A stretch of DNA of 64,000 bases from Alphaproteobacteria bacterium (lineage in GTDB: Bacteria; Pseudomonadota; Alphaproteobacteria; Reyranellales; JAQSWP01): assembly GCA_029266575.1 (NCBI GenBank), contig JAQSWP010000005.1, positions 343 through 64,342 on the forward strand, in the 5' to 3' direction. The translations under genes were made by a program, and so were the position numbers. Each line of letters begins with the position of its first letter. Positions within the stretch are counted from its first letter, which is position 1. The notes under the pieces were generated by a model. The model was given only the letters and a program-made list of their open reading frames with translations. It made no database searches and was not told where the DNA came from. Shown piece after piece: positions 4,315-58,620 of this stretch.

Positions 4315-4351
4315 GATTCCTGTTTCCCCGATCCTAACACCGATTTCCCAC

Positions 4352-5743: not shown

Positions 5744-5775
5744 CGCACGACGATGAAGCGACAGCCCGCGAGCGG

Positions 5776-14628: not shown

Positions 14629-15789
14629 CTAGTTCTTCTTCCGCTGATCGTTCTTCCGGCCGAGGATTTCGGCCGCGATCATGTTCTTGTGGATCTGCAC
14701 CGTGCCGCCATAGATCGAGCCGCCGCGCACTTCGGTGTAGCGCTGCACCATCGGGTAATCCTTGGTGTAGCCGTTGGCGCCCAGGATCTGCAGCGCATCG
14801 TCGCAGATCTCCTTGGCCGCATTGGCCGTGTAGACCTTGGCGATCGAGGTCTCGAGCCGGTCCGGCAGGCCGGTGTCGCCCGCCCCGGCGGCCGCGCGAT
14901 AGGTCAGGAGCTTGGCGGCATCGAGCTTGATGCGCATGTCGGCCAGCATCCATTGCAGGCCCTGGAAATCGGCGATCTCGCGGCCGAACTGTTTGCGCTC
15001 CTTGGCATAGGCAAGCGCATATTCGTAAGCCGCCTGCGCCGAGCCCAGCATGCGCGAGATGCTGCCCAGCCGCTCGCCGTTATAGATGCTGATCAGTTTG
15101 CCGAAGGCGTTCTCGCGGATCAGGATGTTCTCGACCGGCACCTTGCACTCGTCGAAATAGAGTTCGAACAGCAATTCGTCGGCCATGTTGATGGTGCCGT
15201 TGGAGCGGGTGAAGCCCGGCGCATCGTGCGGCACGATGACGGCGCCGATATCCTTGGCCGAGCCGGTGTCGGCCAGCCGGCAATAGAGCACGGTGTAGTC
15301 GTTGGCGTTGACGGCGCTGACGAACTGCTTGTGGCCCTTGATGACGACGTGGTCGCCGACGATGCGCCCCTTGGTCTTCATCTCGGTGGCGGCGGAACCT
15401 GCTTCCGGCTCGGTGATGCCGATGGAAATGCCGATCTCGCCGGCGGTGGAGCGCTTGACCAGCTCCTTCTGCTTCTCGTTGCCCAGCTTGGCGATGGCGC
15501 CGACCGCGCCGGTCGAGGAGCGATGCGCGATGCTGCCGATCGCCGAATCGCAGGCCTGCAGGGTCTGGGTCAGCAGCAAGGTGTCGAGCAGCGGCAGGCC
15601 CGAGCCGCCCAGCTCGACCGGCATGTTGACGCCCAGCAGCCCGTAATGCGCCATTTCCTTGCGCAGCTTCCTGGTGCCATCGGCCGAATGCACGTCGTTG
15701 TTGTCGATGAACGGCTTCAGCTTGCGCGCATAGACTTCCCTGGCTGACTCGATCAGTTGCTGCTGGCGTTCATTGATGGCGAAATCCAT
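14629..15789 (-). CDS. Acyl-CoA dehydrogenase
   Basis: 386 aa with ACAD-fold signatures (GITEPEAGSA, KQFVS, GANGYTKDYPMVQRYTEVRGGSIYGGT). A Glu sits at the isovaleryl-CoA-dehydrogenase-like position (YNGERLGS). First gene of the long minus-strand operon. Confidence 0.85.
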   Translation of the reverse strand: MDFAINERQQQLIESAREVYARKLKPFIDNNDVHSADGTRKLRKEMAHYGLLGVNMPVELGGSGLPLLDTLLLTQTLQACDSAIGSIAHRSSTGAVGAIAKLGNEKQKELVKRSTAGEIGISIGITEPEAGSAATEMKTKGRIVGDHVVIKGHKQFVSAVNANDYTVLYCRLADTGSAKDIGAVIVPHDAPGFTRSNGTINMADELLFELYFDECKVPVENILIRENAFGKLISIYNGERLGSISRMLGSAQAAYEYALAYAKERKQFGREIADFQGLQWMLADMRIKLDAAKLLTYRAAAGAGDTGLPDRLETSIAKVYTANAAKEICDDALQILGANGYTKDYPMVQRYTEVRGGSIYGGTVQIHKNMIAAEILGRKNDQRKKN

Positions 15790-16168: not shown

Positions 16169-16273
16169 TGCGTGACGATACGGCTTTGCGCTTTAATGCG
16201 CTGCGACAGGGATGAAACGGCCGGCTGCAGTGCGAGACTGCGGCAGACGGCGAAACGGGGTTTGAGAGCGACG

Positions 16274-17818
16274 ATGGACAAGGCACTGCTGCAAGAACTG
16301 GACGAGAAGCGCAAAAAGGGACGCGCTCCCGGTCACGTCAACACCAAGAAAAACGCCCAGTCGCTGCATCCCGACAAGCTGTCGGCGCGCGAGCGCATCA
16401 ATCTGCTGCTCGATCCCGGCTCGTTCGAGGAACTCGGCGTACTGGCGCGCAGCCAGAACAAGGACCTCTACGACCGCTCGCCGGCCGACGGGCTGATCGC
16501 GGGCTGCGGCAAGATCGACGGCCGCGTCGTCTATGTTAGTTCCGACGATTCGACGGTTCTGGCCGGCACGCGCGGGCGGGTCGGCGAGCTCAAGACCCAG
16601 CGCCTGCGCGAGATGGCGGAGAAGCACAACAAGCCTTACATCGCGCTGATGGAAGCCGGCGCCGGCCGCTTCCAGGAAATCAACGGCGCCACTGCCGCCG
16701 GCGTCGGCAACCGCTTCCGCGAGCATTTCCGCCTCTCGGGCCGCGTGCCAATGGTCGCCGCCTTCATGGGCGCCTGTTTCGGCGGCCCCTCCTTCACCGG
16801 CCAGCAATCCGATTTCATCACCATCGTCGACGGCACCGGCTTCATGGGCATGTCGGGCCCGCCGGTGGTCAAGGTCGGCATCGGCATCGACGTGACGCGC
16901 GAGGAAATCGGCTCGGGCCAGCTGAGCGCCGCCGTCACCGGCCAGGCCGACCATCTGGGCAGCAACGAGAAGGAATCGCTGCTGGCGATCCGCACCTTCC
17001 TGTCCTATTTCCCGTCGAGCTGCTTCGATCTGCCGCCAGTGCACGAGCCCAGGCCGGCGCCGTGCGATACGCCGGAAGGCAAGGAGAAGATCAACGCGCT
17101 GGTGTCGGAGAACCACCGCCGCGGCTACAACATGGAGCAGCTGGTCCGCATGCTGGTCGATGGCGGCGAGCTGTTCGTCTATCGTCCGCTCTATGGCCGC
17201 AACCTTTTGACCACGTTGTGCCGCATCAACGGCCGCTCGGTCGGCATCGTCGCCAACAACCCGATGCACCTGGCCGGCGCGCTCAACCACGAGGCGGCGA
17301 TCAAGGCGCGCAAATTCATCGATCTGTGCGACGCCTACCACATCCCGATGGTTTTCCTGTGCGACTGCCCGGGCTTCCTGGTCGGGCCCGACATGGAAAA
17401 GAACCGCATGGTGAGCCTGGCCTCGCGCATGCTGAATTCGGTGATCGCCACCACCGTGCCGAAAGTCACGGTCGTCATCCGCAAGGCGATCGGCCTGGCC
17501 TATATCGCCATGGGCGGCAAGACCATGAACCCCGACGTCATCGTCGGCTGGCCGACCTCGTTCTTCGACGCCATGGGCCCGGCGGCCGGCGTCGAGCTGG
17601 TGCATGGGCGCAAGATCAAGGAAGCGGCCGATCCCGAAGCGCTGCGCGCGGAGCTGATGCAGAAGGTGCTGGAGGAGGGCAACGGCTATCTCGCCGCCGA
17701 ACGCGCCTTGCTCGACGACATCATCAGCCCGTGCGAGACGCGCAATCTCATCATCAGCGTGCTGGAGCGCCATCCCCAGCCACGCCAGCCGGGCTTCAAG
17801 CATCGCATCGATCCCTGA
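16274..17818 (+). CDS. Acyl-CoA carboxylase beta-type carboxyltransferase (divergent)
   Basis: Start moved to ATG 16274 (MDKALLQELDEKRKKG). Shows two-domain carboxyltransferase signatures: LSARERINLLLDPGSFEE, GRVVYVSSDDSTVLAGT, GAGRFQE, CDCPGFLVGP. Confidence 0.8.
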   Translation: MDKALLQELDEKRKKGRAPGHVNTKKNAQSLHPDKLSARERINLLLDPGSFEELGVLARSQNKDLYDRSPADGLIAGCGKIDGRVVYVSSDDSTVLAGTRGRVGELKTQRLREMAEKHNKPYIALMEAGAGRFQEINGATAAGVGNRFREHFRLSGRVPMVAAFMGACFGGPSFTGQQSDFITIVDGTGFMGMSGPPVVKVGIGIDVTREEIGSGQLSAAVTGQADHLGSNEKESLLAIRTFLSYFPSSCFDLPPVHEPRPAPCDTPEGKEKINALVSENHRRGYNMEQLVRMLVDGGELFVYRPLYGRNLLTTLCRINGRSVGIVANNPMHLAGALNHEAAIKARKFIDLCDAYHIPMVFLCDCPGFLVGPDMEKNRMVSLASRMLNSVIATTVPKVTVVIRKAIGLAYIAMGGKTMNPDVIVGWPTSFFDAMGPAAGVELVHGRKIKEAADPEALRAELMQKVLEEGNGYLAAERALLDDIISPCETRNLIISVLERHPQPRQPGFKHRIDP

Positions 17819-17856: not shown

Positions 17857-19428
17857 ATGCCGATTTGGGATCGCAGCACCGACATCATCGTGGTCGGCTT
17901 TGGCGCCGCCGGCGCCGTGGCCGCCATCGAGGCCGCCGATTGCGGCGCGCAAGTTCTGGTGCTGGAGAAAATGCCCGATCCGGGCGGGCTCTCCGCTGTT
18001 TCGGCCGGTGGCGCCCGCGTCTGCAACGACGTCGAGGAATGCTACAAATACCTGCTTGCCACTTCGGGCGGGCGCACGCCGGACAGCATCATGCGCGGCC
18101 TGGCCGAAGGCATGTTCCAGATTCCGGCCTATCTGCAGAAACTGGCCGATGCCGTCGGCGCCAAAATGAAAGTCACGCCGGCCTTGGGCAACTATCCCTT
18201 CCCCGGCTATGAATCGCTGGCCTATTGCCAGATCGATTCGGTGCCGGCGCTCGAAGGCCTCACCTCCTATCGCGCCATCCGCGGCATCAAGGAGGGCACC
18301 AAGCTGTTCAAGGTGCTGGAAGACAATGTCGCCGCGCGCAACGTGCCGGTGCTCTACAACGCCACCGCCGATCGGCTCATCCGGGATGACAAGGGCGAGA
18401 TCGTCGGTATCACCGCGACGATCGATGGCAAGAGCCAGCGCATCCAGGCGCGCAAGGCGGTGATCCTGGCCTGTGGCGGCTACGAGCACAGCGAGGAAAT
18501 GAAGCGCCAGTATTTCCAGGCGCAGCCGGTGCTGACCGGCTCCTTCGTCGGCAACACCGGCGACGGCATCCGCATGGCGCAGGCGGTCGGCGCTGATCTC
18601 TGGCACATGTGGCACTACCACGGGCCTTACGGCATGAAGCACAGCGATCCGGACTATCCGCTGGCCTTCTACATGAAGGCGGTGCCGATGTGGACGCCGG
18701 GCCGCATGGATCAGGTGTCCGATCTCGGCGTCACCGACGCGCATGGCAAGCCGGTGTCGCAAAAATCGCTGGCGCGCATGGCCTGGATCCTGCTCGACAA
18801 GACCGGCCGGCGTTTCATGGACGAATACCCGCCCTATCCCGGCGATACCGGCATCCGCCCCTTCGACGCTTACGATTCCAAGACGCAAGGGTTTCCGCGC
18901 ATCCCCGCCTTCATCGTGTTCGACGAGGAGGGCCGCAAGATGTATCCGATCGGCCGCGCCATCTCCAACAGCCGTGACTTCCATTACCAGTGGAGCCCGG
19001 ACAATCTCAAGGAGGTCGAGCTCGGCATCCTGCATCGCGCCGATTCGATCGCCGATCTCGCCAGGGCGATGGGCATTCCGGCCGCGGCGCTGCAGAAGAC
19101 CATCGATTCCTGGAACGCCAATTGCGCTGCCGGCAGCGATCCCGAGTTCGGCCGCCAGCCCGACAGCATGGCGCCGATCAAAACCGCGCCGTTCTACTAC
19201 GGCCATATCTATCCGGTGGTCATCAACACCCAGGGTGGCCCGGTGCATAACATCCACCAGCAGGTGCTGACGCCGTTCGGCGAGGCCATTCCCCGGCTCT
19301 ACGCGGCGGGCGAGCTGGGCAGCAAATTCGGCCATCTCTACATGGGGGGCGGCAATCTCGCCGAATGCTTCGTCGGCGGCTGGACCGCCGCGCGCCATGC
19401 CGCCGCGCTCAAGCCGCTGGATGCCTGA
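17857..19428 (+). CDS. FAD-dependent oxidoreductase (fumarate-reductase/KstD-type flavoprotein)
   Basis: ATG 17857 lies 6 nt after GGAGGA. The N-terminus DIIVVGFGAAGAVAAIEAA is a Rossmann motif, and the C-terminal LYAAGELGS motif is present. The first 265 codons of the 788-aa ORF are an alternative frame of the previous gene. Confidence 0.85.
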   Translation: MPIWDRSTDIIVVGFGAAGAVAAIEAADCGAQVLVLEKMPDPGGLSAVSAGGARVCNDVEECYKYLLATSGGRTPDSIMRGLAEGMFQIPAYLQKLADAVGAKMKVTPALGNYPFPGYESLAYCQIDSVPALEGLTSYRAIRGIKEGTKLFKVLEDNVAARNVPVLYNATADRLIRDDKGEIVGITATIDGKSQRIQARKAVILACGGYEHSEEMKRQYFQAQPVLTGSFVGNTGDGIRMAQAVGADLWHMWHYHGPYGMKHSDPDYPLAFYMKAVPMWTPGRMDQVSDLGVTDAHGKPVSQKSLARMAWILLDKTGRRFMDEYPPYPGDTGIRPFDAYDSKTQGFPRIPAFIVFDEEGRKMYPIGRAISNSRDFHYQWSPDNLKEVELGILHRADSIADLARAMGIPAAALQKTIDSWNANCAAGSDPEFGRQPDSMAPIKTAPFYYGHIYPVVINTQGGPVHNIHQQVLTPFGEAIPRLYAAGELGSKFGHLYMGGGNLAECFVGGWTAARHAAALKPLDA

Positions 19429-20269: not shown

Positions 20270-21031
20270 TCAACCGCCGTCGACTTCGATCACCGTGCCG
20301 GTCGTGAAGCCGGCGCGGTCGGAGACCGCGAACAGCACCGCATCCGACACTTCCTGCGCGCTGCCCAGCCGTCCAAGATAGTTCGAGCCGGCGATCGCCT
20401 TGTCCGAGCCCGCCGGGTCGAGCTTGTTGCGCTCGTTGGTCGACTGGCGGATGGCGGCGAGCCGCGGCGAATCGATGACGCCGGGCGAGACCGCCACGAA
20501 ACGCACGCCGTCCTTGCCATAGGTCATGGCCAGGCCCTTGGTCAGCAGGTTGAGCGCGGCATTGGCGCTGCAGCCGGGCAGATGCACGTCGCGCGGCGCC
20601 CGCCCGCCCTTGCCGGTGACGTTCACCACCACGCCCTTCTCCTGCTTGATCATGTGCGGCAGGGCGGCGCGCGTAGTGCGCATGTAGCCGATCTGCTTGG
20701 TCTGCAGCACCTTGAGCCAGACATCGTCGTCCAGGTTCAGGAAATCGCCGAACAGCGACAGCGAGGTGGTGTTGACCAGAATGTCGATGCGCCCGGTCTG
20801 CGCCACGATGGCGGCAGCGGCAGCATCGACCGATTTACGCTCGGTGATGTCGACCGGCAACGGTTTTAGCGCCGTGCCGGCGGCCATGTCCTTGAGCTTC
20901 TTCTCATCGCGCGAGGAAACGAACACCGTGGCGCCCGAAGCCGCCAGATCGGCGCTGATCTGCTTTCCCAAGGTGCCGCCCGCGCCAACGACCCAAGCCG
21001 TGCGGCCTTTCAATTCGTTCTGCATGTCCAC
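20270..21031 (-). CDS. SDR-fold protein with atypical active site
   Basis: 253 aa with the Rossmann motif GAGGTLG. Where classical SDRs have YSASK it reads GCSANAALNLLTK (apparent Tyr to Cys and Lys to Asn). Confidence 0.8.
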   Translation of the reverse strand: MDMQNELKGRTAWVVGAGGTLGKQISADLAASGATVFVSSRDEKKLKDMAAGTALKPLPVDITERKSVDAAAAAIVAQTGRIDILVNTTSLSLFGDFLNLDDDVWLKVLQTKQIGYMRTTRAALPHMIKQEKGVVVNVTGKGGRAPRDVHLPGCSANAALNLLTKGLAMTYGKDGVRFVAVSPGVIDSPRLAAIRQSTNERNKLDPAGSDKAIAGSNYLGRLGSAQEVSDAVLFAVSDRAGFTTGTVIEVDGG

Positions 21032-21040
21032 TCCCGTTGA

Positions 21041-21793
21041 TTAGCGTGCGGCGAGCAGGCGGCCAAAGGCCGTCTCGCCGTTCTGCGCCTGCTGTTCGGC
21101 CAGTTTGTGATAGCGCTCCTGCAGACGCTGCAGCCGCTCGTGCATTGCGATGACGGCCCCCTCTTCGTCGCGCGCCCGCAGCAGCGCCACCATCTTGCGC
21201 CGCCATTCGATGTGGTAGGGATCGACATCAGGTGCGGCGTGCTTGGCGAACTGCATGGTGAGATCCATCAGCAGGCGCATGTTCAGGATCAGCACCGGGT
21301 TCTTGGTCGCCCGCGCCAGGATGTTGTGGAACTCGATATTGACCGCGACCTTCTCGGCCAGCCGTCCCTGGCGCAGCAATTCGACGCCAAGATCGATGTT
21401 GGTTTCGAGTTCGGCGAAATCCTCCCCCGTCGCCCGCTGGCAGGCGACCTTGGTGACGATGGTCTCGATCCACAGCCGCGCCTGGGTTAGATGCTCGATG
21501 GTGATCTGGCCCAGATGCAGCATGTCGCGCATGGAATCGGCGATCAGGCGGGCGTCGACCTCGCGCACGAAGGCACCGCCCTTGGCGCCGGTCTGCAACT
21601 CGATGAAGCCCGCCACTTCCAGGGTGCGCAGCGCCTCGCGAATGGCGTTGCGGCTGGCCTGGAACTGCTTGGCCAACTCGCGTTCGGACGGCAGCTTGTC
21701 GCCGGGCTTGAGCTGCCCGTTGCGCATCTGCTCGCGAAACTGGTCGATGACCTCTTCGAAGACGCGACGGGTGCGGATCGGGGTGAAACTCAT
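21041..21793 (-). CDS. GntR-family transcriptional regulator (FadR/FCD type)
   Basis: 250 aa with PSERELAKQFQASRNAIREALRTLE. Paralogue of 19471-20202. Confidence 0.9.
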   Translation of the reverse strand: MSFTPIRTRRVFEEVIDQFREQMRNGQLKPGDKLPSERELAKQFQASRNAIREALRTLEVAGFIELQTGAKGGAFVREVDARLIADSMRDMLHLGQITIEHLTQARLWIETIVTKVACQRATGEDFAELETNIDLGVELLRQGRLAEKVAVNIEFHNILARATKNPVLILNMRLLMDLTMQFAKHAAPDVDPYHIEWRRKMVALLRARDEEGAVIAMHERLQRLQERYHKLAEQQAQNGETAFGRLLAAR

Positions 21794-21827: not shown

Positions 21828-22997
21828 TTAGCGTTGCAGCGTCGAATCGAATTCGCCGCCCATCTGCGACTGGCCGACGATCTGCGCCGTCTTGTCGTGG
21901 CCGGCATGCAGGATATGGGTCTGCAGGTCGCGGATCATGCGGCCGAGCGGGAATTCCTCGAACAGAGCCGTCGAGCCGGCGCCCTCGGTGATGGCGCGCG
22001 CCAGGTTGAGCGCGGTGTGGGCGGCGGTGTATTTGGCGCTCATCGACAGCAGCTCGGCCTCGACCACCGACTTGGTCTTCCAGGCGCGGATGGCGTCGTG
22101 GAACAGCGACTGGGCGGCGTTGAGCTGGATCTTCATCTCGCCGGTGCGCAGCAGGATGATGGGATCCTTGCCCTTGCCTTTCTTGACGGCGTAGTCGCGG
22201 AACCACTCGAACATGCCTTCGGCGGTGCCGAGATAGTTGGCGGTGAAGCCAAGATGGTACTTGCCTTGCCAGCGCTGGCGCGGATAGGCGCCGGGCTCGC
22301 CCAGCACATGCTCTTTCGGCACGTGCACGTTGTCGAGATGGACCACCGGGCTTGCCGCGCCGCGCATGCCGAGCGGCCGGTACCAGTCGTTGTCGATCCG
22401 CACGCCCTGCTGCTTGGTTTCGATGATCGTCATCAGATGGTTGTTCTGATAATCGTTCACGCCTTCGACCGAGGCGAAGATGATGGCGAAATCCATGGTC
22501 GGGCCGTTGGTGGCGTAGTTCTTCACGCCATTGACGATGTAGCCGCCCTTGCCGTCCGGCTTGGCCGTCGTGCTCATGATGTACATGTGCTTGCGCGAGG
22601 GCTCGGAGCCAACGAAGGACGCCAGGAACGGCCGCTTCAGGCCCGGCTTGACGAACTTCTCCTTCTGGTAGTCGCTGCCGATGGCATCGATGATCCAGGC
22701 GGTGTGGTTGTTGACCTGCAGGCAATGGGCGGTCGAGGAGCAGCCGCGCGCGGTGACGCGAATGGCCTGCAGATAGGTGGCGGGATCGTCGCTATCGAGA
22801 TTGGAACCCATGCCGCCGGTCTGCTTGGTCACGGCGCAGGTCAGCCAGCCGCCGGCGAACAGATCGTCGATGTTCTTGGTCGGCATGTCGCAGGTGGGAT
22901 CGTATTCCGGCGCGCGCGCGCGAAACGTGGTGACGGCCTGTTCGGCCAGCGCCTGGACCTTGTCGCTGCGCAGCGAGACTTCCGGATCGATAAACAT
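21828..22997 (-). CDS. ACAD-fold protein lacking the canonical catalytic Glu (possible flavin monooxygenase or desulfinase-type enzyme)
   Basis: Start at ATG 22997 (MFIDPEVSLRSDK), preceded by AGAGGAAG. 389 aa with KNYATNG and the C-terminal region LQTHILHAGHDKTAQIVG in place of the ..YEGT..IQ.. motif. Confidence 0.8.
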   Translation of the reverse strand: MFIDPEVSLRSDKVQALAEQAVTTFRARAPEYDPTCDMPTKNIDDLFAGGWLTCAVTKQTGGMGSNLDSDDPATYLQAIRVTARGCSSTAHCLQVNNHTAWIIDAIGSDYQKEKFVKPGLKRPFLASFVGSEPSRKHMYIMSTTAKPDGKGGYIVNGVKNYATNGPTMDFAIIFASVEGVNDYQNNHLMTIIETKQQGVRIDNDWYRPLGMRGAASPVVHLDNVHVPKEHVLGEPGAYPRQRWQGKYHLGFTANYLGTAEGMFEWFRDYAVKKGKGKDPIILLRTGEMKIQLNAAQSLFHDAIRAWKTKSVVEAELLSMSAKYTAAHTALNLARAITEGAGSTALFEEFPLGRMIRDLQTHILHAGHDKTAQIVGQSQMGGEFDSTLQR

Positions 22998-23014
22998 GGG
23001 CTTCCTCTTTTCTG

Positions 23015-24688
23015 TTAAACGGTGGCGGCCACGGGCCGCGTGTCCTGGTCTTGCGAAAGCTTGCGTTTCGCCTGTTCCTTCAATTCGAGCTTCTTGATCT
23101 TGCCGGTGCTGGTGAACGGGAATTCGTCGACCAGCTCGATGAAGCGCGGCACCTTGTAGCCGGCAATATGCTGCTTGCAGCGGGCGATGATCGCCTCGCC
23201 ATTGGGTTTCTCGCCGTCCTTGGGCTGGACAAAGGCGTAGGCCACCTCGCCCAGCCGCGCATCGGGCACGCCCACCACCACCGCCTGCTTGACGCCTTCG
23301 CAGGTGAGCAGGAATTCCTCGATCTCCTGGGTGGCGACGTTGAAGCCGCCCGGCTTGATCATCTCCTTCACCCGGCCGCGGAACACGACATAGCCGTCCG
23401 CCGTCAGCTCGCCGAGATCGCCGGTGCACAGCCGGCCCTTGGCGTCGAATGCTTTGGCGTTCTCCTCCGGCCGGTTGTAGTAGCCCTGCATCACGGTGTA
23501 GCCCGAGATGCGCATCTCGCCGGTGCGGCCCGCCGGCAATTCCTCGCCGCTGTCGACGTCGACGATATGCACGCCGACGCCGGGCATCGGCTTGCCGTTG
23601 GTGCGCAGCTTCAATTCCAGCGGCTCGTGCCAGAAGGAGCGGCTGATCGAGTTCGAGGTCTCGGACATGCCGTAGACATTGGTGAAATGCCTGGCGCCAA
23701 GCTGTTCGACGATGAAGCGGAAGGAATCGCTGGAGAGCGGACCGCCGGTGCCGGTGCGCAAGGTCGACAGATCGTGCGAGGCACGGTCCTTGTACTCGCG
23801 CAGATCGTGCACGATGGCGTCGACGAAGAAGGTAAAGGTGATCTTCTCCTGCTCGACCAGGCGGCAGAAAGTCTGCGGATCGAAACGGTCGGCCAGCACC
23901 ATGGCGCAGCCGCAGATCAGGGTCGACAGCGTGTAAGACGTGCCGGTGGCGGAAAACAGCGGTACGGCGGCCAGATAGCGGTCGGCCGGCGTCATGTCGA
24001 AGCGCTCGATGGTGTTGCGGTTGTTCTGCAACAGCGCGCCGTGGCGCACCATGGCGCCCTTGGGGAACGAGGTGGTGCCCGAGGTATAGAGGATTTGCGC
24101 CACGTCGTTGGGTTTGACGCCGGCGCGGAAGGCCTCGAGCTGGTGCTGCGCGTCGGAAGAATTCCGGCCGAGTTCTTCGATATCGGTGAAGCGCAACATC
24201 GAGTCCGGAACATCGGCGCCGCGACCGATCACGCCGCGCAGCTTGGGCAATTCGGGCACGGCCCAGTGGCCCTGCTTCTGCTCGCGGAAGGCCGGTGCAA
24301 TGCGGCCGAGAATGTCGAAGTAGCTGACGCCGGCAGCACCCTCGTCGACGATCAGGAACTTGCTATCGGACTGCTTCAGGATGTAGCCGACGTCGTTGTC
24401 GCGGAAGCGGGTGTTGATCGGCACCAGCACGGCGCCGAGATAGGGAATTGCCCAGCGCGCGATGACCCAGTCGATGCAGTCGGGCATCCACAGGCAAACG
24501 TGATCCCCCGGCTGCACGCCCAGCGCCACCAGCCCGCGGGCGAAGTCGCGCACGCGTTGCGCCATCTGCGCATAGTTCAGCCGCGCCGTGCCATGCACCA
24601 GCGCTTCGCGCACGCTGTGCGTCTTCGCCGCCCACTCGATCGCGTCGGCGAAGGTCTGCTGGCTCCAAATGGGCTCGCGCTGGACCAT
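23015..24688 (-). CDS. AMP-forming acyl-CoA ligase (more distant family)
   Basis: Start at ATG 24688 (MVQREPIWSQQTF), 2 nt after the upstream SDR stop. 557 aa with YTSGTTSFPKGAMVRH and VYGMSE. Confidence 0.9.
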   Translation of the reverse strand: MVQREPIWSQQTFADAIEWAAKTHSVREALVHGTARLNYAQMAQRVRDFARGLVALGVQPGDHVCLWMPDCIDWVIARWAIPYLGAVLVPINTRFRDNDVGYILKQSDSKFLIVDEGAAGVSYFDILGRIAPAFREQKQGHWAVPELPKLRGVIGRGADVPDSMLRFTDIEELGRNSSDAQHQLEAFRAGVKPNDVAQILYTSGTTSFPKGAMVRHGALLQNNRNTIERFDMTPADRYLAAVPLFSATGTSYTLSTLICGCAMVLADRFDPQTFCRLVEQEKITFTFFVDAIVHDLREYKDRASHDLSTLRTGTGGPLSSDSFRFIVEQLGARHFTNVYGMSETSNSISRSFWHEPLELKLRTNGKPMPGVGVHIVDVDSGEELPAGRTGEMRISGYTVMQGYYNRPEENAKAFDAKGRLCTGDLGELTADGYVVFRGRVKEMIKPGGFNVATQEIEEFLLTCEGVKQAVVVGVPDARLGEVAYAFVQPKDGEKPNGEAIIARCKQHIAGYKVPRFIELVDEFPFTSTGKIKKLELKEQAKRKLSQDQDTRPVAATV

Positions 24689-24690
24689 GC

Positions 24691-25461
24691 CTAGCGTCTC
24701 GTCTCCGGCCCGCCGCGGACATAGATGATCTGGCCCGAAACGTAGGAGGCTTCCTCGCTGCACAAAAAGCAGATGACGTTGGAGATATCGCGCGGCACGC
24801 CGACGCGACCGATCGGAATGGCCTTGGCGCGGGCGGCCTTGTATTCCTCGGGGTCCTGGCCCAGCCGGCGCGCGGTCTTGCGCGTCATCTCGGTGTCGAC
24901 GAAGCCTGGCGCCACGCAATTGACGTTGATGTTGAAGGGCCCCAGCTCGATCGACAGCGTACGCGTCATGCCCTGGATGGCGGCCTTGGCGGCGGAGTAG
25001 TTGAACTGGCCGCGATTGCCCAGCGCCGCGGTCGAGGACAGGCTGACGATCTTGCCGAAGCGCTGCTGCACCATGAATTTCTGGGCGTATTTGGTGCAGA
25101 GGAAATTGCCCTTCAGATGCACCGCCATGACCTGGTCCCAGTCTTCCTCGGTCATCTTGTGCAAGAGGTTGTCGCGGGTAATGCCGGCATTGTTGACCAG
25201 CATGTGGATGCCGCCGAAGCGCTGCGCGGCTTCGTTCATCGCCGCTTCGGTCGCTGGACCATCGGTGATATCGACCACCGCACCCCAGGCCTCGATACCG
25301 TTCCTGGCCGCGATCTCCTTGGCGGTGTCGGCCACCGCCTTGTCGAGATCCAACAGCACCACCTTGGCGCCGCCTTCGGCGAACAGGGCCGCCACATCAG
25401 CGCCGATGCCGCGCGCGGCTCCCGTAACCACGGCGACCCGGCCTTCAAATTTTTTGGTCAT
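24691..25461 (-). CDS. Classical SDR (FabG-like 3-oxoacyl reductase type)
   Basis: Start at ATG 25461 (MTKKFEGRVAVVTGAARGIG). Carries NNAG and the YSAAK catalytic motif. Confidence 0.9.
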   Translation of the reverse strand: MTKKFEGRVAVVTGAARGIGADVAALFAEGGAKVVLLDLDKAVADTAKEIAARNGIEAWGAVVDITDGPATEAAMNEAAQRFGGIHMLVNNAGITRDNLLHKMTEEDWDQVMAVHLKGNFLCTKYAQKFMVQQRFGKIVSLSSTAALGNRGQFNYSAAKAAIQGMTRTLSIELGPFNINVNCVAPGFVDTEMTRKTARRLGQDPEEYKAARAKAIPIGRVGVPRDISNVICFLCSEEASYVSGQIIYVRGGPETRR

Positions 25462-26023: not shown

Positions 26024-26860
26024 CTATCGCTGCGTCTTCTTCCAGCGCAGCAGATATTTCTCCAGCGCCACGATCATGCCGTTGAGGAACGTGGAGATGA
26101 TGACCAGCAGCACCAGAGCCGCGAAGGCTCCCGCCGTGTCGAACTGTCCGGTCGAATTGGTCAGCAGGAAGCCGATGCCGCGGTTGGACGCCATCATTTC
26201 GCCCACCACCGCTCCGATCAGCGCATAGGGCACCGACACGCGCAGGCCGACGAAGATCACCGTCATTGCCGATGGCAGCACCACGCGCCACAGCACCTGC
26301 AGAGTTCCCGCCCCCATCAGGCGGACGATGTCGACCAGCTCGCGGCTGACGTCGCGCACGCCGGCGTAGGTGTTGTAGAACACCAGGAAGAACACGATGG
26401 TCGCGGTCAGGATGATCTTGGTCTCGATGCCGATGCCGAACCACAGGATGAAGAGCGGCGCCAGCGCCACCTTGGGCAGGCTGTAGATGGCGATGATGAA
26501 CGGGTCGAGCAGGTCGGCCACTTTCTCGAACCAGCCGAAGATGAAGCCGACGATGCCGCCCACCGCGGTGCCGATGACGAAGCCCAGGAAGGCTTCGAGA
26601 ATGGTGATCGGCACATGTTGCACCAGCTGGCCGCCCACCGCCCATTCGTACAGGCGCTGGAAGATCATCGACGGCTGGCTGGTGAAGAAGGAATCGATCA
26701 GCTTGTAGCGCACGCCGGCTTCCCACAGCGCCAGCAGCACGGCGAACAGCGCCAGCCGGATGGCGATCAGCCTGATGCGGACGGCAACCGGATTGATCTT
26801 GTGCTCGAGCAGCACATCGTCCTTCTTGACGGTGCTCAGCGGGATGGAGCGGTCGGACAT
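26024..26860 (-). CDS. ABC transporter permease, NitT/TauT (SsuC/TauC-like) family
   Basis: 278 aa membrane protein with SLPKVALAPLFILWFGIGIETK, typical of this permease family. Confidence 0.85.
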   Translation of the reverse strand: MSDRSIPLSTVKKDDVLLEHKINPVAVRIRLIAIRLALFAVLLALWEAGVRYKLIDSFFTSQPSMIFQRLYEWAVGGQLVQHVPITILEAFLGFVIGTAVGGIVGFIFGWFEKVADLLDPFIIAIYSLPKVALAPLFILWFGIGIETKIILTATIVFFLVFYNTYAGVRDVSRELVDIVRLMGAGTLQVLWRVVLPSAMTVIFVGLRVSVPYALIGAVVGEMMASNRGIGFLLTNSTGQFDTAGAFAALVLLVIISTFLNGMIVALEKYLLRWKKTQR

Positions 26861-26870
26861 GCTTGGTCTC

Positions 26871-27644
26871 CTAGGCCGCTTCGCTCTTGCGGATGTCGTC
26901 GCGCAGCAATTCCCAGACGCGATGGTAGATCTCGATGAATTCCGGGGTGGTCTGCAGCAGGAAGGGATCGCGCGGGCGCGGCAGGTCGATGTCGATGATG
27001 GCCTTCACCGTTCCCGGCCGCGCCGACAGCACCACCACCTGGTCCGACAGGGTGATGGCCTCGGTCAGATCGTGGGTGATGAAGAGAATGGTCTTCTTCT
27101 CCAGCTCCCAGACGCGCAACAGCTCCTCGTGCATCATGCCCTTGACGTGCGCGTCGAGCGCGCTGAACGGCTCGTCCATCATTACCAGTTCCGGCGAATA
27201 GATCAGCGTGCGCGCCAGCGACGCACGCTTGCGCATGCCGCCCGACAGCTCCATCGGGTAGTGCTTGGCGAAATCCGTCAGCCCCATCAGATTGAGGTAG
27301 TAGTCCGCCAGCTCTTTCTGCTTTTGCCGCGGCATGCGGCGGATGCGCAGCGCGATGACGATGTTGTCGTACACCGTCGACCATTCCAGCAAGTTGTCGC
27401 GCTGGGTGATGTAGCCCAGCTGGGTATTGATGTCGGTGACTTGCTTGCCCTTGTAGAGCACCTCGCCCGCGGTCGGCATGCTGAGGCCGGCCGACAGGTT
27501 CAAAAGCGTGGACTTGCCGCAGCCGCTGGGCCCGACGACGGAGACGAACCGGCCCTCGTCGATCTTGAAGCTGACATTGCGCAGCGCCACGACTTCGGCG
27601 TCGCGCTTGTAGAATTTCTTGGTGACGCCCCGGTATTCGAGCAT
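26871..27644 (-). CDS. ABC transporter ATP-binding protein, NitT/TauT family
   Basis: Start at ATG 27644 (MLEYRGVTKKFY). Has Walker A GPSGCGKST, the signature LSGGMRKR and Walker B MMDEP. The upstream 193 codons of the ORF are spurious. Confidence 0.9.
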   Translation of the reverse strand: MLEYRGVTKKFYKRDAEVVALRNVSFKIDEGRFVSVVGPSGCGKSTLLNLSAGLSMPTAGEVLYKGKQVTDINTQLGYITQRDNLLEWSTVYDNIVIALRIRRMPRQKQKELADYYLNLMGLTDFAKHYPMELSGGMRKRASLARTLIYSPELVMMDEPFSALDAHVKGMMHEELLRVWELEKKTILFITHDLTEAITLSDQVVVLSARPGTVKAIIDIDLPRPRDPFLLQTTPEFIEIYHRVWELLRDDIRKSEAA

Positions 27645-28847: not shown

Positions 28848-30476
28848 TTAAGCCGATTGCGCCAGGCCGCTCTCGGCCAGGCGTTGCAGCGCCATATCGC
28901 GCAATTTGAATTTCTGGATTTTTTCGGTGCCGCCGGTGACCGGGAAGGCATCGACGATGAAGACATGCGCCGGCAGCTTGAACGAGGCCAGACGCGGCGC
29001 CAGGAAAGCGCTCACCGAGTCCGGATCGAGCTTCGCGTTGGGCTTGGGGATGACGAAGGCAACGCCGATCTCGCCATGACGCCGGTCGGGCACGCCGACC
29101 ACGGCGATCTGCGCGATATCGGGATGGTCGGCCGCGACGCGCTCCACTTCCGGCGTCGAGACGTTGAAGCCCTTGTGCTTGTAGCCGTCCTTGACCCGCC
29201 GCAGGAATTTCACCGACCCGTCGACATTGAGGATGCCCAGATCGCCCGAACGCAGCCAGCCGTCGTCGGTAATGCTCTTCCGTGTCTCTTCCGGCTTGTT
29301 GTAGTAGCCGGGCATGATCGAATAGCCGCCGATCCAGATCTCGCCTTCGGCGCCGCGCGGCAGATCCTGGCCGGTGTCGGGATCGACGACCCGGATGGGA
29401 CAATCGGGCAGCGGCTGGCCTTGCGAGGCGAAGCGGGTCTCCAGCGGATCGTCCCAACGGCAGCGCGTCACCAGCCCGGTCGACTCCGTCAACCCATAAC
29501 CCGTCACCACGCCCGCCACGCCAAGTTCCCCGGCGGCACGGCGCAGGATGACGGGATCGGAGCTCAACACCACGCCGGTGCGCAGCTTCAGCTTGGCTTG
29601 CGGGAATTGCGGATGGGCGATCAGCGCGTCGATCATCGCCGGCAGCAGATGGATCGCCGTGCAGCGTTCCTCTTGCAGCGCCTTCATGCAGGCATCGACG
29701 TCGAAGCGCTCGTCGAGCACGATGCGCGCGCCATGGCTCCAGAACGACAGCACGCCATTGAGCGAGCCCAGCACGCCAAACAGCGGCACGCAGAGATAAA
29801 GGCAATCAGCCGGCGTCAGCCCGATCAGCGCGCCGCCGTCATAGGCCTTGCGCCAGATGCACGACGTCAGCATGGCGCCCTTGGGCAGCGCCGTGGTGCC
29901 CGACGAATAGCAGATCAGCGCCGGCGCATCGGCGTCGGCGGCCGGCGGCGGCACCGGCAGAGCCGCCTGCATCGACCAGTCGAGCACGCCCGGCAATTGC
30001 TTCGGCGGCTTGTCGCAACAGACCACAGCCTGCAGCTTGGGAAACGTCGCGCTGTTCAAGCGGCCGACGGAACGGGTTGCCAGTTCCGGACAGGCTTCGA
30101 CCAGCTCGCCGAGGAAATCGCGGAACGCCGGGCGGCCGGGCACGACCACCACAGCGGCATCCGACTGGGCGATCTGGTAGATGAATTCGTCGCGCCGCAG
30201 GCGGGTGTTGAGGAACACCGCCACCAGCCCCGACTTGGCGGCGCCGAACCAGTACCACATGAATTCCGGCCGGTTCGGCATCCACAGCGCCACCTTGTCG
30301 CCGGGTTTCAGCCCCAGCGCCTTCAGCCGCGCCGCCGCCCGGTCAGATTCGCGCCTGATGTCGGCGAAGCTGTAGCGCCTGCCCTCGAACAGCAGCGCCT
30401 CGCGCGCGCCGAAGCGTTCGGCCAGATGGTCGATCGCCTCGACGTAGGTCTTGCCGGTATACGGATTGACCGCCAT
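28848..30476 (-). CDS. AMP-forming acyl-CoA ligase, family member 4
   Basis: Start at ATG 30476 (MAVNPYTGKTYVEAI). Has YSSGTTALPKGAMLTS and GYGLTE, and shares WMPNRPEFMWYWFGAA..LNTRL with the tandem ligases. Confidence 0.9.
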   Translation of the reverse strand: MAVNPYTGKTYVEAIDHLAERFGAREALLFEGRRYSFADIRRESDRAAARLKALGLKPGDKVALWMPNRPEFMWYWFGAAKSGLVAVFLNTRLRRDEFIYQIAQSDAAVVVVPGRPAFRDFLGELVEACPELATRSVGRLNSATFPKLQAVVCCDKPPKQLPGVLDWSMQAALPVPPPAADADAPALICYSSGTTALPKGAMLTSCIWRKAYDGGALIGLTPADCLYLCVPLFGVLGSLNGVLSFWSHGARIVLDERFDVDACMKALQEERCTAIHLLPAMIDALIAHPQFPQAKLKLRTGVVLSSDPVILRRAAGELGVAGVVTGYGLTESTGLVTRCRWDDPLETRFASQGQPLPDCPIRVVDPDTGQDLPRGAEGEIWIGGYSIMPGYYNKPEETRKSITDDGWLRSGDLGILNVDGSVKFLRRVKDGYKHKGFNVSTPEVERVAADHPDIAQIAVVGVPDRRHGEIGVAFVIPKPNAKLDPDSVSAFLAPRLASFKLPAHVFIVDAFPVTGGTEKIQKFKLRDMALQRLAESGLAQSA

Positions 30477-30492
30477 ATCCCAGCGTAGCGCG

Positions 30493-31527
30493 CTATTTCT
30501 TGCCGGCAAGCGCATCGCGGACGAACTGGTTGGAGACCGATGCTTCGAAGTCGAACTCGCCCTTGGCGTAGGCCGTGCCGCCGAACGCCAGCAGCTCGCG
30601 GTATTTCTTCAGGCCTTCGATCGGCGTTTCCGCGCCAGCCGGCGAGGCGGATTTCATCGCCTTGATGCCAAGCTCGTAGAGTTCGGAATCCATCGCCGCC
30701 AGGTGTTTGCGGGCGGCCTTGCCGGCGGCCAGGATGTCGGCCTGAATCAGCTTGTCGGCGGCATCGATGGCGCGGGCGAAGGCAGCCAGTTGCTTGCTTT
30801 TCTCCGTCAGCGCTTTTTCCGTCACCGCCATGGCGGTGAACACCATGCCGCGCGTCTCGGGGACTTCGCCGCCGATCATGTCGAGCAGGATGGCGCCATA
30901 GCCGTCCGCCACCGCCTTCTCCGGCACCGGCGGTGAGAAGGCGCTGGCGTCGATCGAGCCGCGGCGCATGGCGGCCAGCGTGTTGGCCGAATCGCCGATC
31001 GGCACGATTTCGGCGGCCTTGTCGACATCGACGCCGCCGACATATTTGGCGAACAGGAAGCGCATCATGGTGTGCTGGCCGCCATTGAAGGAGATGACGC
31101 CGATCTTCTTGCCCTTCAGCAGCGCCATCTTCTGCTCGACGGTGGACTTATCGGTGAGGCCGGCCTGCTGCATCAACTCCTTGCGCACGAAGATGGTCGA
31201 GGTGTACTCGGTGTTCATCGGCACCAGGAACTTGACCGGCTGGTTGGCGGCGCGCGCGGCGAACACCGCATTGCCGCCGACGCCGGCGACATCGGCATCG
31301 CCATTGAGGATGGCGGTCACGACGACCGTGCCGTCCTTGACGTTGACGATCTCGACCTCGAGATTTTCCTTGGCGAACAGTCCGGCGCCATCGGCGACGT
31401 ACAGCGGCAGCCAGGCGAAGGAAGTGCTGCTCAGCACCACTTTCAGCTTGTCGGCGGCTTGCGCGACACCGGATGCCAGCAAAGCGATGGCGATTGCAGC
31501 GCCCGCCATGATTTTCCTATTGCCCAT
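30493..31527 (-). CDS. ABC substrate-binding protein, NMT1/SsuA/TauA-like
   Basis: 344 aa with a signal peptide (MGNRKIMAGAAIAIALLASGVAQA). GGAGGG lies upstream. Confidence 0.85.
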   Translation of the reverse strand: MGNRKIMAGAAIAIALLASGVAQAADKLKVVLSSTSFAWLPLYVADGAGLFAKENLEVEIVNVKDGTVVVTAILNGDADVAGVGGNAVFAARAANQPVKFLVPMNTEYTSTIFVRKELMQQAGLTDKSTVEQKMALLKGKKIGVISFNGGQHTMMRFLFAKYVGGVDVDKAAEIVPIGDSANTLAAMRRGSIDASAFSPPVPEKAVADGYGAILLDMIGGEVPETRGMVFTAMAVTEKALTEKSKQLAAFARAIDAADKLIQADILAAGKAARKHLAAMDSELYELGIKAMKSASPAGAETPIEGLKKYRELLAFGGTAYAKGEFDFEASVSNQFVRDALAGKK

Positions 31528-31580
31528 GGATTCCCTCCGCGTGATGGCCGCTGTTTGCCGCGGCCCGTTCGCCGTTCGAG

Positions 31581-32618
31581 TTATTGCTTTTTCGCCAGTG
31601 CCTGTTCGACGAAGTCGTTGACCGTGATCTTGCTGACATCGAGCGTGTCGAACTTGTAGCCGGCACTGATCAGCAGGTCCTTGAAGGTCTGCAGGCCTTT
31701 GACCGAAGTGGTGGCGGTTTTGGGCAGCGCCGGCGCCATCGCCTTGACGCCGCGCGAATAGAGTTCCGATTCCATGGCGCCCATCATCACCTTGGCGGCC
31801 TTGCCGGCGGCGACCAGGTCCTTGTCCGCAAGCTTGTTGGCCTTCTCGATGGCGCGCAGGAAAGCGGCCACCATCGGACCGTCTTTCTTCAGCTTCTCCT
31901 CGCTCACCACCAGCACGACATAGATCGAGCCCTTGATGGCGGGCACGTCGCCACCGATGAAATCGATCAGGACTTCGCCGATATCGTCGGCTTCCGCTTT
32001 TTCCGGCACCGGCGGCGAGAACGCCGAGACGTCGATGATGCCTCGCTTCATGCCGGCCAGCGTGGGAGCGCTGTCGCCGATCGGCACCACTTCCGACAGC
32101 TTGTCGACATCGGCGCCGTCGAGATATTGCTTGAACAGGAAGCGGTACATCAGATGCGGCCCGGCGCCGATCGCGGTCGTGGCCAGCTTCTTGCCGACCA
32201 GGAACTTGACCTTGTCCTTAAGCGGCGAGGCGCGGGTGATGCCGGCTTCCTTCATCAGCCCTTTGCGCACGAAGATGGTCGAGGTGTACTCGGTTACCAT
32301 CGGCGTCAGGATCTTGATCGGCTGGCCTTTGTCGATGGCGTTGAAGGCGGTCTGCACACCCAGCCCGCCCAGATCGACCGAGCCGTTGAGCATGGCGGCG
32401 GCCGGGGTCGAATTGGCCGGCACGTTGACGACCTCGACGTTCAAGCCTTCTTCCTTGAAGAAACCGCCGCCAATGGCGACGTAAAGCGGGAACCAGGCGA
32501 AGCTGGTGCTGCCGATCGCAACCTTGACGTTACGTTCCTGCGCCGGTGCCAGCCCGGCCCACAGAACCGCAACGGCCATTGTTGCCGCCACGAAAAGTGA
32601 CAATTTCCCAGTTTTCAT
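31581..32618 (-). CDS. ABC substrate-binding protein, NMT1/SsuA/TauA-like (paralogue)
   Basis: Start at ATG 32618 (MKTGKLSLFVAATMAVAVLWAGLAPAQE) after AAGGAGGG. Collinear with 30493-31527. Confidence 0.85.
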   Translation of the reverse strand: MKTGKLSLFVAATMAVAVLWAGLAPAQERNVKVAIGSTSFAWFPLYVAIGGGFFKEEGLNVEVVNVPANSTPAAAMLNGSVDLGGLGVQTAFNAIDKGQPIKILTPMVTEYTSTIFVRKGLMKEAGITRASPLKDKVKFLVGKKLATTAIGAGPHLMYRFLFKQYLDGADVDKLSEVVPIGDSAPTLAGMKRGIIDVSAFSPPVPEKAEADDIGEVLIDFIGGDVPAIKGSIYVVLVVSEEKLKKDGPMVAAFLRAIEKANKLADKDLVAAGKAAKVMMGAMESELYSRGVKAMAPALPKTATTSVKGLQTFKDLLISAGYKFDTLDVSKITVNDFVEQALAKKQ

Positions 32619-32736
32619 GCCCGTTTCCCTCCTTGCTGGCGCATTGTCCCTGCGCCGTTGCAACCGTTCTTCCACACGCAATACTGGCGGTGGGGGCCTA
32701 AGCCCTATGGAATCTTTGGGAAACCTGGGCTAAAAT

Positions 32737-55151: not shown

Positions 55152-55188
55152 CAACTCACCTCATAACGAAACAAGGAGCGAAACGACC

Positions 55189-58484: not shown

Positions 58485-58522
58485 GATCCCTCCATGCCGG
58501 ACGCTGCATACGTCTCTTGCGT

Positions 58523-58534
58523 GATATCGATACA
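58523..58534. promoter_or_regulatory. GATATCGATACA copy of the recurrent operator-like motif
   Basis: Read directly in the divergent region between the PrpD-like gene and the second TauD-like gene. Confidence 0.4.
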
Positions 58535-58620
58535 TTACCGTAGCAATTTTCCGCCGCTTGGGAAGAATTTGTGTAACATTCAGATCAAATTGCACCTATG
58601 CGTTTTGGAGAGGAATGGCC

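Follow-up and report, generated by a model that had tools for sequence, protein, structure and literature searches.

Three acyl-CoA dehydrogenase-like proteins in the window

The stretch of DNA analysed in this study comprises 64,000 nt of contig JAQSWP010000005.1 (Alphaproteobacteria, Reyranellales) and is referred to as the window (G+C content 63.7%). It encodes three paralogous proteins with the fold of acyl-CoA dehydrogenases (ACADs), which lack the catalytic glutamate and were designated as Glu-less (GL) proteins: GL1a (copy 1), GL2 (copy 2) and GL1b (copy 3). A fourth ACAD of the window was designated ACAD4. An earlier inspection, referred to here as the sequence-only reading, had proposed these three paralogues, and all three open reading frames (ORFs) were found on the minus strand with Pfam ACAD domains (Table 1). 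The gene calls of GL1a and GL2 (389 aa each) agree with independent metagenome contigs, the length of GL1b agrees with that of 401-aa homologues such as P0022, and the third-position G+C content of the three genes (0.83–0.87) is like that of neighbouring real genes. GL1a and GL1b share 62% identical amino acids; GL2, which represents a separate subfamily, is 34–36% identical to either of them, and ACAD4 shows 23–25% identity to all three.

Loss of the catalytic base

The residues of the active site were surveyed in an alignment of 53 sequences, which included 46 members of the family. In profile and single-sequence alignments with solved ACADs, Glu368 of rat short-chain ACAD (SCAD), which corresponds to Glu376 of the medium-chain enzyme (MCAD), lies opposite Ala365 of GL1a. 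At the alternative base position of isovaleryl-CoA and long-chain acyl-CoA dehydrogenases (IVD and LCAD; E254/E261), which precedes a conserved Arg, GL1a possesses Tyr247 and GL2 a Trp residue, and the Arg itself is exchanged for His248, which is invariant in GL1 and GL2. Across the 46 members, the MCAD-type site is occupied by Ala, Gly, Ser or Val, apart from a single Asp and a single Arg (both in a clade of 379-aa proteins), and the IVD-type site by Phe, Tyr, Trp, Ile, Leu, Met or Val. Neither Glu nor Asp is present at either site in 45 of these proteins, and the remaining one, from the 379-aa clade, possesses Asp at the MCAD-type site. The three-domain fold of canonical ACADs is retained according to the Pfam domains, the AlphaFold2 (AF2) model and the TM-scores. 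The ACAD signature [ST]-E-x-x-G-[ST]-D is lost, the GL proteins reading SEPSRK--H at this place. They also differ from nitroalkane oxidase, whose base Asp402 occupies the position of MCAD Glu376, as Ala, Gly or Ser is found there.

These results agree with the sequence-only reading, in which no Glu had been seen at either site. The motifs quoted for the base site are present (THILHAGHDKTAQ in copy 1, THIQHAGHDRTAQ in copy 3 and HSTHANLHNTAQ in copy 2), with the trivial slip that copy 3 had been listed before copy 2. Those of the alternative site, QGKYHLGF in copies 1 and 3 and GARWHLGF in copy 2, were found as well, and no conserved acid aligns with either site in the 46 relatives. ACAD4, for which a Glu at the IVD-like site (NGERLG) had been described, indeed carries this Glu, and its MCAD site is occupied by Gly.

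Fold and whole-length similarity

The AF2 model of GL1a reached a pLDDT of 89.8. When the PDB was searched with a single GL sequence, DszC was the best match (E 9e-23). With the family profile, short-chain ACADs obtained the highest score (132 bits), followed by DszC (108 bits), the desulfinase AcdDPN7 (5af7, 80 bits), MsuC (6u76, 75 bits) and, over the whole length, C2-HPAH and HsaA (64–68 bits). In a Foldseek comparison with the PDB, DszC and TdsC lead by E-value, with TM-scores of 0.80–0.84 for DszC versus 0.86–0.88 for SCAD and MCAD. Fold and whole-length similarity cannot separate a dehydrogenase from a monooxygenase. A neighbour-joining tree with DszC as the sole monooxygenase reference amounts to a three-branch problem and is uninformative on the grouping; it was replaced by tests of signature residues, indels and the C-terminal profile.

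Monooxygenase-type signature of the catalytic region

All profile alignments to ACADs end at profile positions 358–359, just before the segment with the catalytic Glu, while the alignment to DszC reaches position ~380. In this alignment, His91, His361 and His364 of the GL proteins lie opposite His92, His388 and His391 of DszC. His91 and His364 are invariant in all 46 members, and His361 is present in 43 of them. The GL proteins thus possess the catalytic His of the C-terminal helix and the companion His residues of group D flavin monooxygenases, in an ACAD fold without the dehydrogenase base. In DszC, Ser163 is the residue that forms a hydrogen bond to the flavin N5. The corresponding Thr163 of the GL proteins is conserved; this residue is non-discriminating, since ACADs also possess Thr or Ser there. 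For DszC it has been described that His391 assists in C4a-hydroperoxyflavin formation, and it is proposed to protonate O2 (PMC11134501); the role of Ser171 of C2 at the flavin N5 has likewise been described (PMC10696468).

Nine of the consensus residues (conserved in ≥85% of the family) occur in DszC and in none of six ACADs (H91, G152, S216, F251, G286, E287, H361, H364 and G375), and two show the opposite pattern. In addition, the ACAD segment FG.P..FQ..Q..ADM is not present at full length in the GL proteins; they share with DszC a deletion of five residues in it, and both have G-E where ACADs have A-D. In ACADs, this segment presumably touches the ADP part of the FAD of the adjacent subunit. 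Its shortening would be compatible with flavin mononucleotide (FMN), or with a flavin that is loosely bound and serves as a substrate.

A profile of the C-terminal 60 residues was compared with the PDB, and C2-HPAH ranked first (E 6e-6), followed by two HsaA structures, Rv3094c, the ACAD 4u83 and then DszC. All five monooxygenase matches are ACAD-fold two-component flavin monooxygenases, and the matches to ACADs cover only the stretch before the His motif. The His of C2 aligned with His364 is His396, which is important for the formation of C4a-hydroperoxyflavin. As far as can be judged from residues and alignments, the features of the catalytic region point to an ACAD-fold two-component flavin monooxygenase.

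It was also considered that the GL proteins are true FAD-dependent acyl-CoA dehydrogenases or oxidases, which act with an unconventional base such as His248, His364 or His367/Asp368 and whose substrate has an acidified alpha-proton. Their best whole-length profile matches and highest TM-scores are those of short-chain ACADs, they keep the R-D motif and most of the scaffold of the flavin pocket, and the gene order short-chain dehydrogenase/reductase (SDR)-GL1-MaoC resembles a beta-oxidation triad. We nevertheless regard this as quite unlikely, as both base sites are devoid of a conserved acid, conservation of Asp368 and His367 does not extend to GL2, and the TEP..GSD signature is lost. Moreover, the segment that presumably contacts the ADP part of FAD is five residues shorter, as in the FMN-using DszC, flavin reductase and RibBA genes co-localise with the GL genes, and a canonical ACAD is usually encoded alongside.

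Flavin supply

In a Pfam scan of all sizeable ORFs of the window no flavin reductase was detected, and tblastn of the window with three PF01613 reductases gave no match; the earlier remark that no flavin reductase is visible nearby is therefore true for the 64 kb. The gene context was further analysed in 80 genome loci, considering neighbours within 10 kb (58 loci with full flanks). A PF01613 flavin reductase was encoded in 28 of these orthologous loci (25 of the 58 with full flanks), and 22 of the 28 contained no luciferase-like or GL2-like alternative partner for the reductase. When the loci of Pseudolabrys and Pseudodonghicola (L088 and L090) were mapped completely with Pfam, no other oxygenase candidate emerged. 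A RibBA paralogue (DHBP synthase/GTP cyclohydrolase II) was present in 17 loci (e.g. L007, 8694–9785; L090, 6313–7434), which suggests a local demand for free flavin beside the GL1 clusters. Altogether, a reductase or a RibBA paralogue was found in 38 loci.

Because orthologous loci carry a reductase, its absence from the window need not speak against a monooxygenase. The gene of the reductase DszD likewise lies outside dszABC. The monooxygenases of the dimethyl sulfide pathway in Acinetobacter baylyi, among them the ACAD-fold proteins Dms1-3, all depend on a single reductase, MsuE (PMC13352529).

Pairing with AMP-forming ligases

The genes of copies 1 and 2 are located directly downstream of a ligase gene and that of copy 3 directly downstream of a PrpD-like gene, as had been reported (gaps in Table 1); ligase_3, which lies beside copy 3, had been missed. 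The three ligases are 30–33% identical (ligase_3 to ligase_1 30%, ligase_2 to ligase_1 33%). Ligase_2 belongs to a group of five paralogues in the window and is 45–57% identical to ligases 4–7. In 41 of the 80 loci, a ligase with ligase_1 as its best match in the window was encoded within 6 kb of GL1. The proposal of a repeated module therefore holds in so far as each of the three GL copies is accompanied by a ligase, but they are not duplicates of one module. The low identity of the ligases, compared with the 62% between GL1a and GL1b, indicates that the ligase-GL pairs were assembled independently, and this argues for a functional link from activation to the GL step. The pair is, moreover, part of a larger cluster with genes for an SDR, a hotdog hydratase, an ACAD4-like protein, a rhodanese, parts of a biotin carboxylase and a KstD-like flavoprotein.

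The pairing bears on a further explanation, according to which the GL proteins are group D monooxygenases of small, non-activated organosulfur compounds, like SfnB, MsuC and Dms1-3, and the ligases serve other steps or are incidental. In agreement with this, the genes of distant members lie in clusters without a ligase, next to genes for luciferase-like monooxygenases, TauD, and NMT1- or Opp-type binding proteins (L079–L086, P0171, P0183); this setting also speaks for a monooxygenase function in general. GL1 reaches 99 bits on the SfnB model, and the sulfur-scavenging members of group D have been described as promiscuous (PMC13352529). On the other hand, a ligase gene is present in 47 of the 58 loci with full flanks and lies 13–17 nt directly upstream of two of the window copies, three independent ligase lineages were recruited, and the products of the core neighbours (SDR, MaoC, ACAD, thiolase and enoyl-CoA hydratase) all work on CoA esters. 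A non-activated substrate is thus considered unlikely.

Gene context in other genomes

AMP-forming ligases were the most widespread neighbours (62 of the 80 loci), followed by SDRs (57), which are encoded directly upstream of GL1 in 22 loci, and MaoC hotdog hydratases (46), which are encoded directly downstream in 32. An ACAD4-like dehydrogenase was encoded in 36 loci, so that a regular ACAD can supply dehydrogenation there. Furthermore, genes for a four-domain rhodanese and a crotonase (enoyl-CoA hydratase, ECH) were each found in 32 loci, a carboxyltransferase and a MocR regulator each in 28, a biotin carboxyl carrier protein, a biotin carboxylase and a KstD-like flavoprotein each in 27, and a thiolase in 19. 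Clustering of the unlabelled neighbours revealed MFS, TRAP and TctC transporters, IclR regulators, a second hotdog subunit, RibBA and thiolase.

Orthologues of GL1b occur in the order TauD< PrpD> GL1b> ligase>, an arrangement that is conserved in L016–L021. The closest relatives of the window are Reyranellaceae-like alphaproteobacterial metagenome-assembled genomes (MAGs; L008–L013), which possess GL1a orthologues with 88–96% protein identity in identical gene order.

Neighbouring genes in the window

GL1a belongs to a transcription unit which is headed by an SDR gene, continues with ligase_1 and GL1a, and is closed by a second SDR gene behind a regulator gene. The operon of GL2 starts with two genes for periplasmic binding proteins and includes ligase_2; genes of a NitT/TauT-type ABC transporter follow downstream of GL2 (Table 1). 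Between GL1b and ligase_3, a conserved ORF of 218 aa is located, copies of which (76–83% identity) occur at the equivalent position in L016, L019, L020 and L021. In total, the window contains seven full-length AMP-forming ligases, at least seven genes for SBP_bac_5 binding proteins, and regulator genes of the GntR/FCD (three) and MocR (one) types. Neither a biotin carboxylase nor a MaoC or ECH hydratase or a thiolase is encoded in the window; as they belong to the core neighbourhood of GL1 elsewhere, the cluster is rearranged or dispersed in this lineage.

Table 1. Positions of the GL genes and of further features in the window
Feature	Position	Strand	Evidence and remarks
PhsA/PsrA-like molybdopterin oxidoreductase (956 aa) and 4Fe-4S subunit	836..4440	-	far below all NCBIfam cut-offs
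Two paralogous multi-transmembrane proteins	4385..7209	-	no Pfam family; 26% mutual identity
Three AMP-forming ligase paralogues in tandem	7212..12120	-	47–51% identical
Four-domain rhodanese protein	12982..14574	-	four rhodanese stretches by Pfam
ACAD4, predicted IVD-type acyl-CoA dehydrogenase	14629..15789	-	best PDB match 5af7, 205 bits
Acyl-CoA carboxyltransferase subunit	16172..17818	+	Carboxyl_trans
KstD/fumarate-reductase-like FAD_binding_2 flavoprotein	17857..19428	+	Pfam
Second SDR	20270..21025	-	adh_short
GntR/FCD regulator, downstream of GL1a	21041..21793	-	Pfam GntR and FCD
GL1a, Glu-less ACAD-fold protein, 389 aa	21828..22997	-	Pfam ACAD N/M/C domains
ligase_1, AMP-forming acyl-CoA ligase	23015..24688	-	AMP-binding and AMP-binding_C; 17 nt upstream of GL1a
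SDR	24691..25461	-	adh_short; gap to ligase_1 2 nt
Biotin carboxyl carrier protein, 71 aa	25736..25951	+	Biotin_lipoyl; SMKM (biotinyl-Lys) motif
NitT/TauT-type ABC permease	26024..26860	-	BPD_transp_1
NitT/TauT-type ABC ATPase	26871..27644	-	ABC_tran
GL2, Glu-less ACAD-fold protein, 389 aa	27665..28834	-	Pfam ACAD N/M/C domains
ligase_2, AMP-forming	28848..30515	-	Pfam; 13 nt upstream of GL2
Two NMT1-type periplasmic binding proteins	30493..32681	-	NMT1/NMT1_2
Two adjoining SBP_bac_5 ORFs	45786..46340; 46412..47308	-	C-terminal part (profile 264–365); N-terminal part (profile 4–207)
TauD-family dioxygenase	50574..51398	-	Pfam TauD
ligase_3, AMP-forming	53568..55154	-	Pfam; 720 nt downstream of GL1b
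Conserved ORF, 218 aa	55195..55851	+	no Pfam match
GL1b, Glu-less ACAD-fold protein, 401 aa	55875..57080	-	Pfam ACAD N/M/C domains
MmgE/PrpD-family protein	57105..58595	-	Pfam MmgE_PrpD_N and _C; 24 nt upstream of GL1b
TauD-family dioxygenase, divergent from PrpD-GL1b	58558..59490	+	Pfam
ATP-dependent DNA ligase, xylose-isomerase-like TIM-barrel and DUF993 genes	59481..60575; 61828..63827	-

A search with NCBIfam gave no name above the cut-off for the molybdenum (Mo) enzyme, the rhodanese, the carboxyltransferase, the FAD_binding_2 protein, the PrpD-like protein (no match at E≤1e-10) or the TauD copies. The TauD-family dioxygenase encoded at 50574..51398 obtained 264 bits with the model for taurine dioxygenase (cut-off 313). 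In the rhodanese protein, the Cys loop (CAGRTRS) is kept in domain 2 only; this protein is conserved beside ACAD4-like genes in many genomes. The PhsA/PsrA-like Mo enzyme may handle sulfite or thiosulfate for the island. In the degradation of mercaptosuccinate by Variovorax, a rhodanese and a Mo oxidoreductase have been linked to the handling of sulfite (summary in PMC5373536).

The tandem ligase genes are followed by those of the two multi-transmembrane proteins. Relatives of one of these, with 477 aa, are encoded next to GL1 in 11 of the 80 loci, and it is on account of this recurrence probably a new permease family for the substrate of the pathway. The two adjoining SBP_bac_5 ORFs look like a single binding-protein gene that is broken by a frameshift, a stop codon or an assembly error. 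The genes for the DNA ligase, the TIM-barrel and the DUF993 protein at the right end appear to be unrelated to the catabolic island.

Comparison with known systems

The sequence-only reading had named flavin monooxygenases and 3-sulfinopropionyl-CoA desulfinase as ACAD-fold enzymes without the base. This comparison set was the right one. Within it, the monooxygenase type is favoured by the His residues, the indel, the C-terminal profile and the presence of reductase or RibBA genes in orthologous clusters, and the residues and model scores speak against the desulfinase type.

DszC and TdsC belong to the closest known systems. Besides the equivalents of His92, His388 and His391, they share with the GL proteins Ser/Thr163, the G-E pair, the five-residue deletion and the C-terminal tail pattern, and DszC, the top PDB match of the GL sequences, is an FMNH2-dependent group D enzyme whose reductase is encoded elsewhere. 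However, the GL proteins are only 24–25% identical to DszC and lack its insertions of 8 and 10 residues as well as Tyr96, Asn129 and the Asp after His391. On the DszC equivalog model NF043015 they obtained 76–108 bits, far below the cut-off of 850. Their genes are, furthermore, tied to CoA ligases and beta-oxidation genes and not to DszA and DszB. In C2, the C-terminal sequence RDAHMTGAHAY..AQILG..MG.E.D.T is similar to RDLxTHxLHAGHD.TAQIIG..LG.EFDST of the GL proteins. HsaA, whose partner is a PF01613 reductase, functions beside KstD, a hydrolase and CoA-dependent steps, and the GL1 clusters show a similar mix. The low whole-length scores distinguish both C2 and HsaA from the GL proteins, and the GL clusters mapped contained neither a ring-cleavage dioxygenase nor a Rieske oxygenase. 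An analogy to the steroid enzymes HsaA, KstD and HsaD was rejected on this basis, as no Rieske or extradiol dioxygenase was present.

AcdDPN7 likewise has the ACAD fold without the catalytic Glu and acts on the CoA ester of an organosulfur acid, and ACAD4, its nearest relative in the window, shares the island with the GL genes. Accordingly, the GL proteins were also considered as non-redox CoA-ester lyases, in which the flavin is structural and sulfur or another leaving group is expelled. The sulfur-related neighbours (rhodanese, TauD and Mo enzyme) would suit this, as would the desulfinase-like ACAD4. Schurmann and co-workers reportedly identified Arg84 in 2015 as a key catalytic residue of the AcdDPN7 desulfinase. 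In GL1a it is replaced by Ser88 and across the family by Ser, Gly or Ala, and Gln246 is replaced by Tyr, Phe, Trp or Ile. The scores on the desulfinase model NF042439 (53–95 bits, cut-off 600) and of 5af7 with the family profile are low, and the sequence relationship of AcdDPN7 to the GL proteins is weaker than that of ACADs or DszC. As an association with flavin reductase or RibBA is in addition not expected for a non-redox enzyme, a lyase function is very unlikely.

ACAD4 itself was considered as a real desulfinase and was ruled out. It possesses Glu at the site of Gln246 and Ser at that of Arg84 and is, judged from these residues, a regular IVD-type dehydrogenase and a sister of the desulfinases.

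A precedent for the oxygenation of a CoA ester with O2 by an ACAD-fold protein is TdaE, a flavoprotein dioxygenase of tropone biosynthesis, which can be supplied in vitro with flavin that a separate reductase has reduced (PMC8283759). However, TdaE is an internal oxygenase, which first dehydrogenates its substrate, and its active-site residues were reported to be distinct from those of ACADs and group D enzymes (PMC8283759). SfnB, MsuC and Dms1-3 belong to group D, are encoded among genes for TauD, SsuD-like proteins and sulfonate transporters, and share a reductase (PMC13352529), but no ligase or beta-oxidation partners are described for them.

Two known pathways were also taken into account. 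Thiophene-2-carboxylate was considered as substrate, since the cluster is found in Xanthobacter tagetidis and Aquamicrobium. This idea was abandoned, as the cluster also occurs in many Xanthobacter species that are not noted for growing on thiophene-2-carboxylate, the degradation of which moreover involves no step for the carboxylase, the SDR or the thiolase. A branched-chain pathway of the Liu/Atu type would include an ACAD, a carboxylase, an ECH, an SDR and a ligase, all of which are present, but no HMG-CoA lyase was seen in the GL clusters mapped.

Family identity and distribution

According to sequence comparison, GL1 (copies 1 and 3) and GL2 (copy 2) form a small uncharacterised clade. 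None of the curated NCBIfam models claims the GL proteins; the best scores were 134 bits for AcrC, 108 for DszC and 99 for SfnB, and no family cut-off (430–850 bits) was reached. On SfnB (TIGR04022, cut-off 431), which ranked second among the models for GL1, the scores ranged from 76 to 99 bits. All homologues are annotated as 'acyl-CoA dehydrogenase family protein'. They were found in Alpha- and Betaproteobacteria, namely in Xanthobacter, Azospirillum, Oceanibacterium, Roseovarius, Paracoccus, Pandoraea, Pusillimonas, Variovorax and Herbaspirillum. GL2, with the motifs HSTHANLH and ARWHLGF, has 379-aa relatives (33–37% identity) with the same C-terminal motif in MAGs of Binatia and deltaproteobacteria, and in Pusillimonas, genes of the GL2 family and of relatives with 37–40% identity adjoin genes for a rhodanese and a flavin reductase. 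When 1.84 billion representatives at 50% identity were searched with the C-terminal 60-residue profile, 113 proteins were obtained at E≤1e-3 and 31 at E≤1e-10, many of them fragments. By this estimate, the family is small (~30–110 clusters at 50% identity). In the literature on such gene combinations, on the breakdown of thiodipropionate and dithiodipropionate by Variovorax and Advenella, on degraders of thiophene-2-carboxylate and on sulfo-, mercapto- and methylthio-acyl-CoA compounds, no description of this cluster was found.

Proposed function and its implications

Taken together, we consider it somewhat more probable than the opposite that GL1a, GL1b and GL2 are the oxygenases of group D two-component reduced-flavin monooxygenases, which act on ligase-activated acids, and not acyl-CoA dehydrogenases. 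In such a system, a separate NAD(P)H:flavin reductase, which in this genome would be encoded outside the window, would deliver reduced FMN or FAD, and the ACAD-type pocket would take up the reduced flavin. O2 would then add at the flavin C4a, aided by the invariant His364 (His391 in DszC, His396 in C2) and by Thr163 near N5, and one oxygen atom would be transferred to the substrate. The attack might occur at a sulfur or carbon position that ordinary beta-oxidation cannot pass. As each copy has its own AMP-forming ligase and a transporter, and as the neighbours in other genomes are of the beta-oxidation type, the substrate is most likely a carboxylic acid in the form of its CoA thioester. The two TauD proteins, the NMT1/NitT transporters, the rhodanese and the PhsA-like Mo enzyme suggest organosulfur acids as substrates in this window. 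This organosulfur theme of the island is plausible but not proven. What the analysis establishes is the fold, the missing base, the catalytic signature of monooxygenase type and the associations of the genes; the chemistry of the flavin, the CoA ester as substrate and the connection with sulfur are inferred.

Several observations weigh against this assignment. The whole-length similarity is greater to short-chain ACADs (132 bits, TM-scores of 0.86–0.88) than to DszC, and GL1 takes the place of the dehydrogenase in the SDR-GL1-MaoC triad. No flavin reductase is encoded in the 64-kb window, and within 10 kb one is found in just about a third of the orthologous loci. The residues in contact with CoA are poorly conserved, even within ACADs. 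With regard to sulfur, the link rests on neighbours that are not universal, and the unbiased clustering of unlabelled neighbours in the 80 loci yielded no dedicated sulfur enzyme.

A more specific proposal, which at present appears doubtful, is that the GL proteins represent a CoA-thioester-specific branch. They would S-oxygenate or hydroxylate the acyl-CoA formed by the ligase, and a sulfur-containing or otherwise blocked group would subsequently leave by beta-elimination, resulting in an aerobic, CoA-dependent desulfurisation of organosulfur acids in Alpha- and Betaproteobacteria. If so, the rhodanese, the acyl-CoA carboxylase and the KstD-like flavoprotein that recur in the clusters would convert the products further, and the desulfurisation route would be one that was previously undescribed.

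If the assignment as monooxygenases is right, pathway reconstructions in which GL genes are counted towards beta-oxidation are in error. The known ACAD-fold monooxygenases have free substrates of the aromatic, steroid and organosulfur types. With a clade systematically tied to genes for acyl-CoA ligases, hydratases, thiolases and a biotin carboxylase, the class would come to include enzymes for CoA-activated acids, and Proteobacteria of soil and sea would be expected to possess a catabolic pathway that has so far gone unrecognised and possibly serves organosulfur acids. The family is experimentally tractable, as it is carried by isolates of Xanthobacter, Pandoraea, Azospirillum, Pusillimonas and Oceanibacterium.

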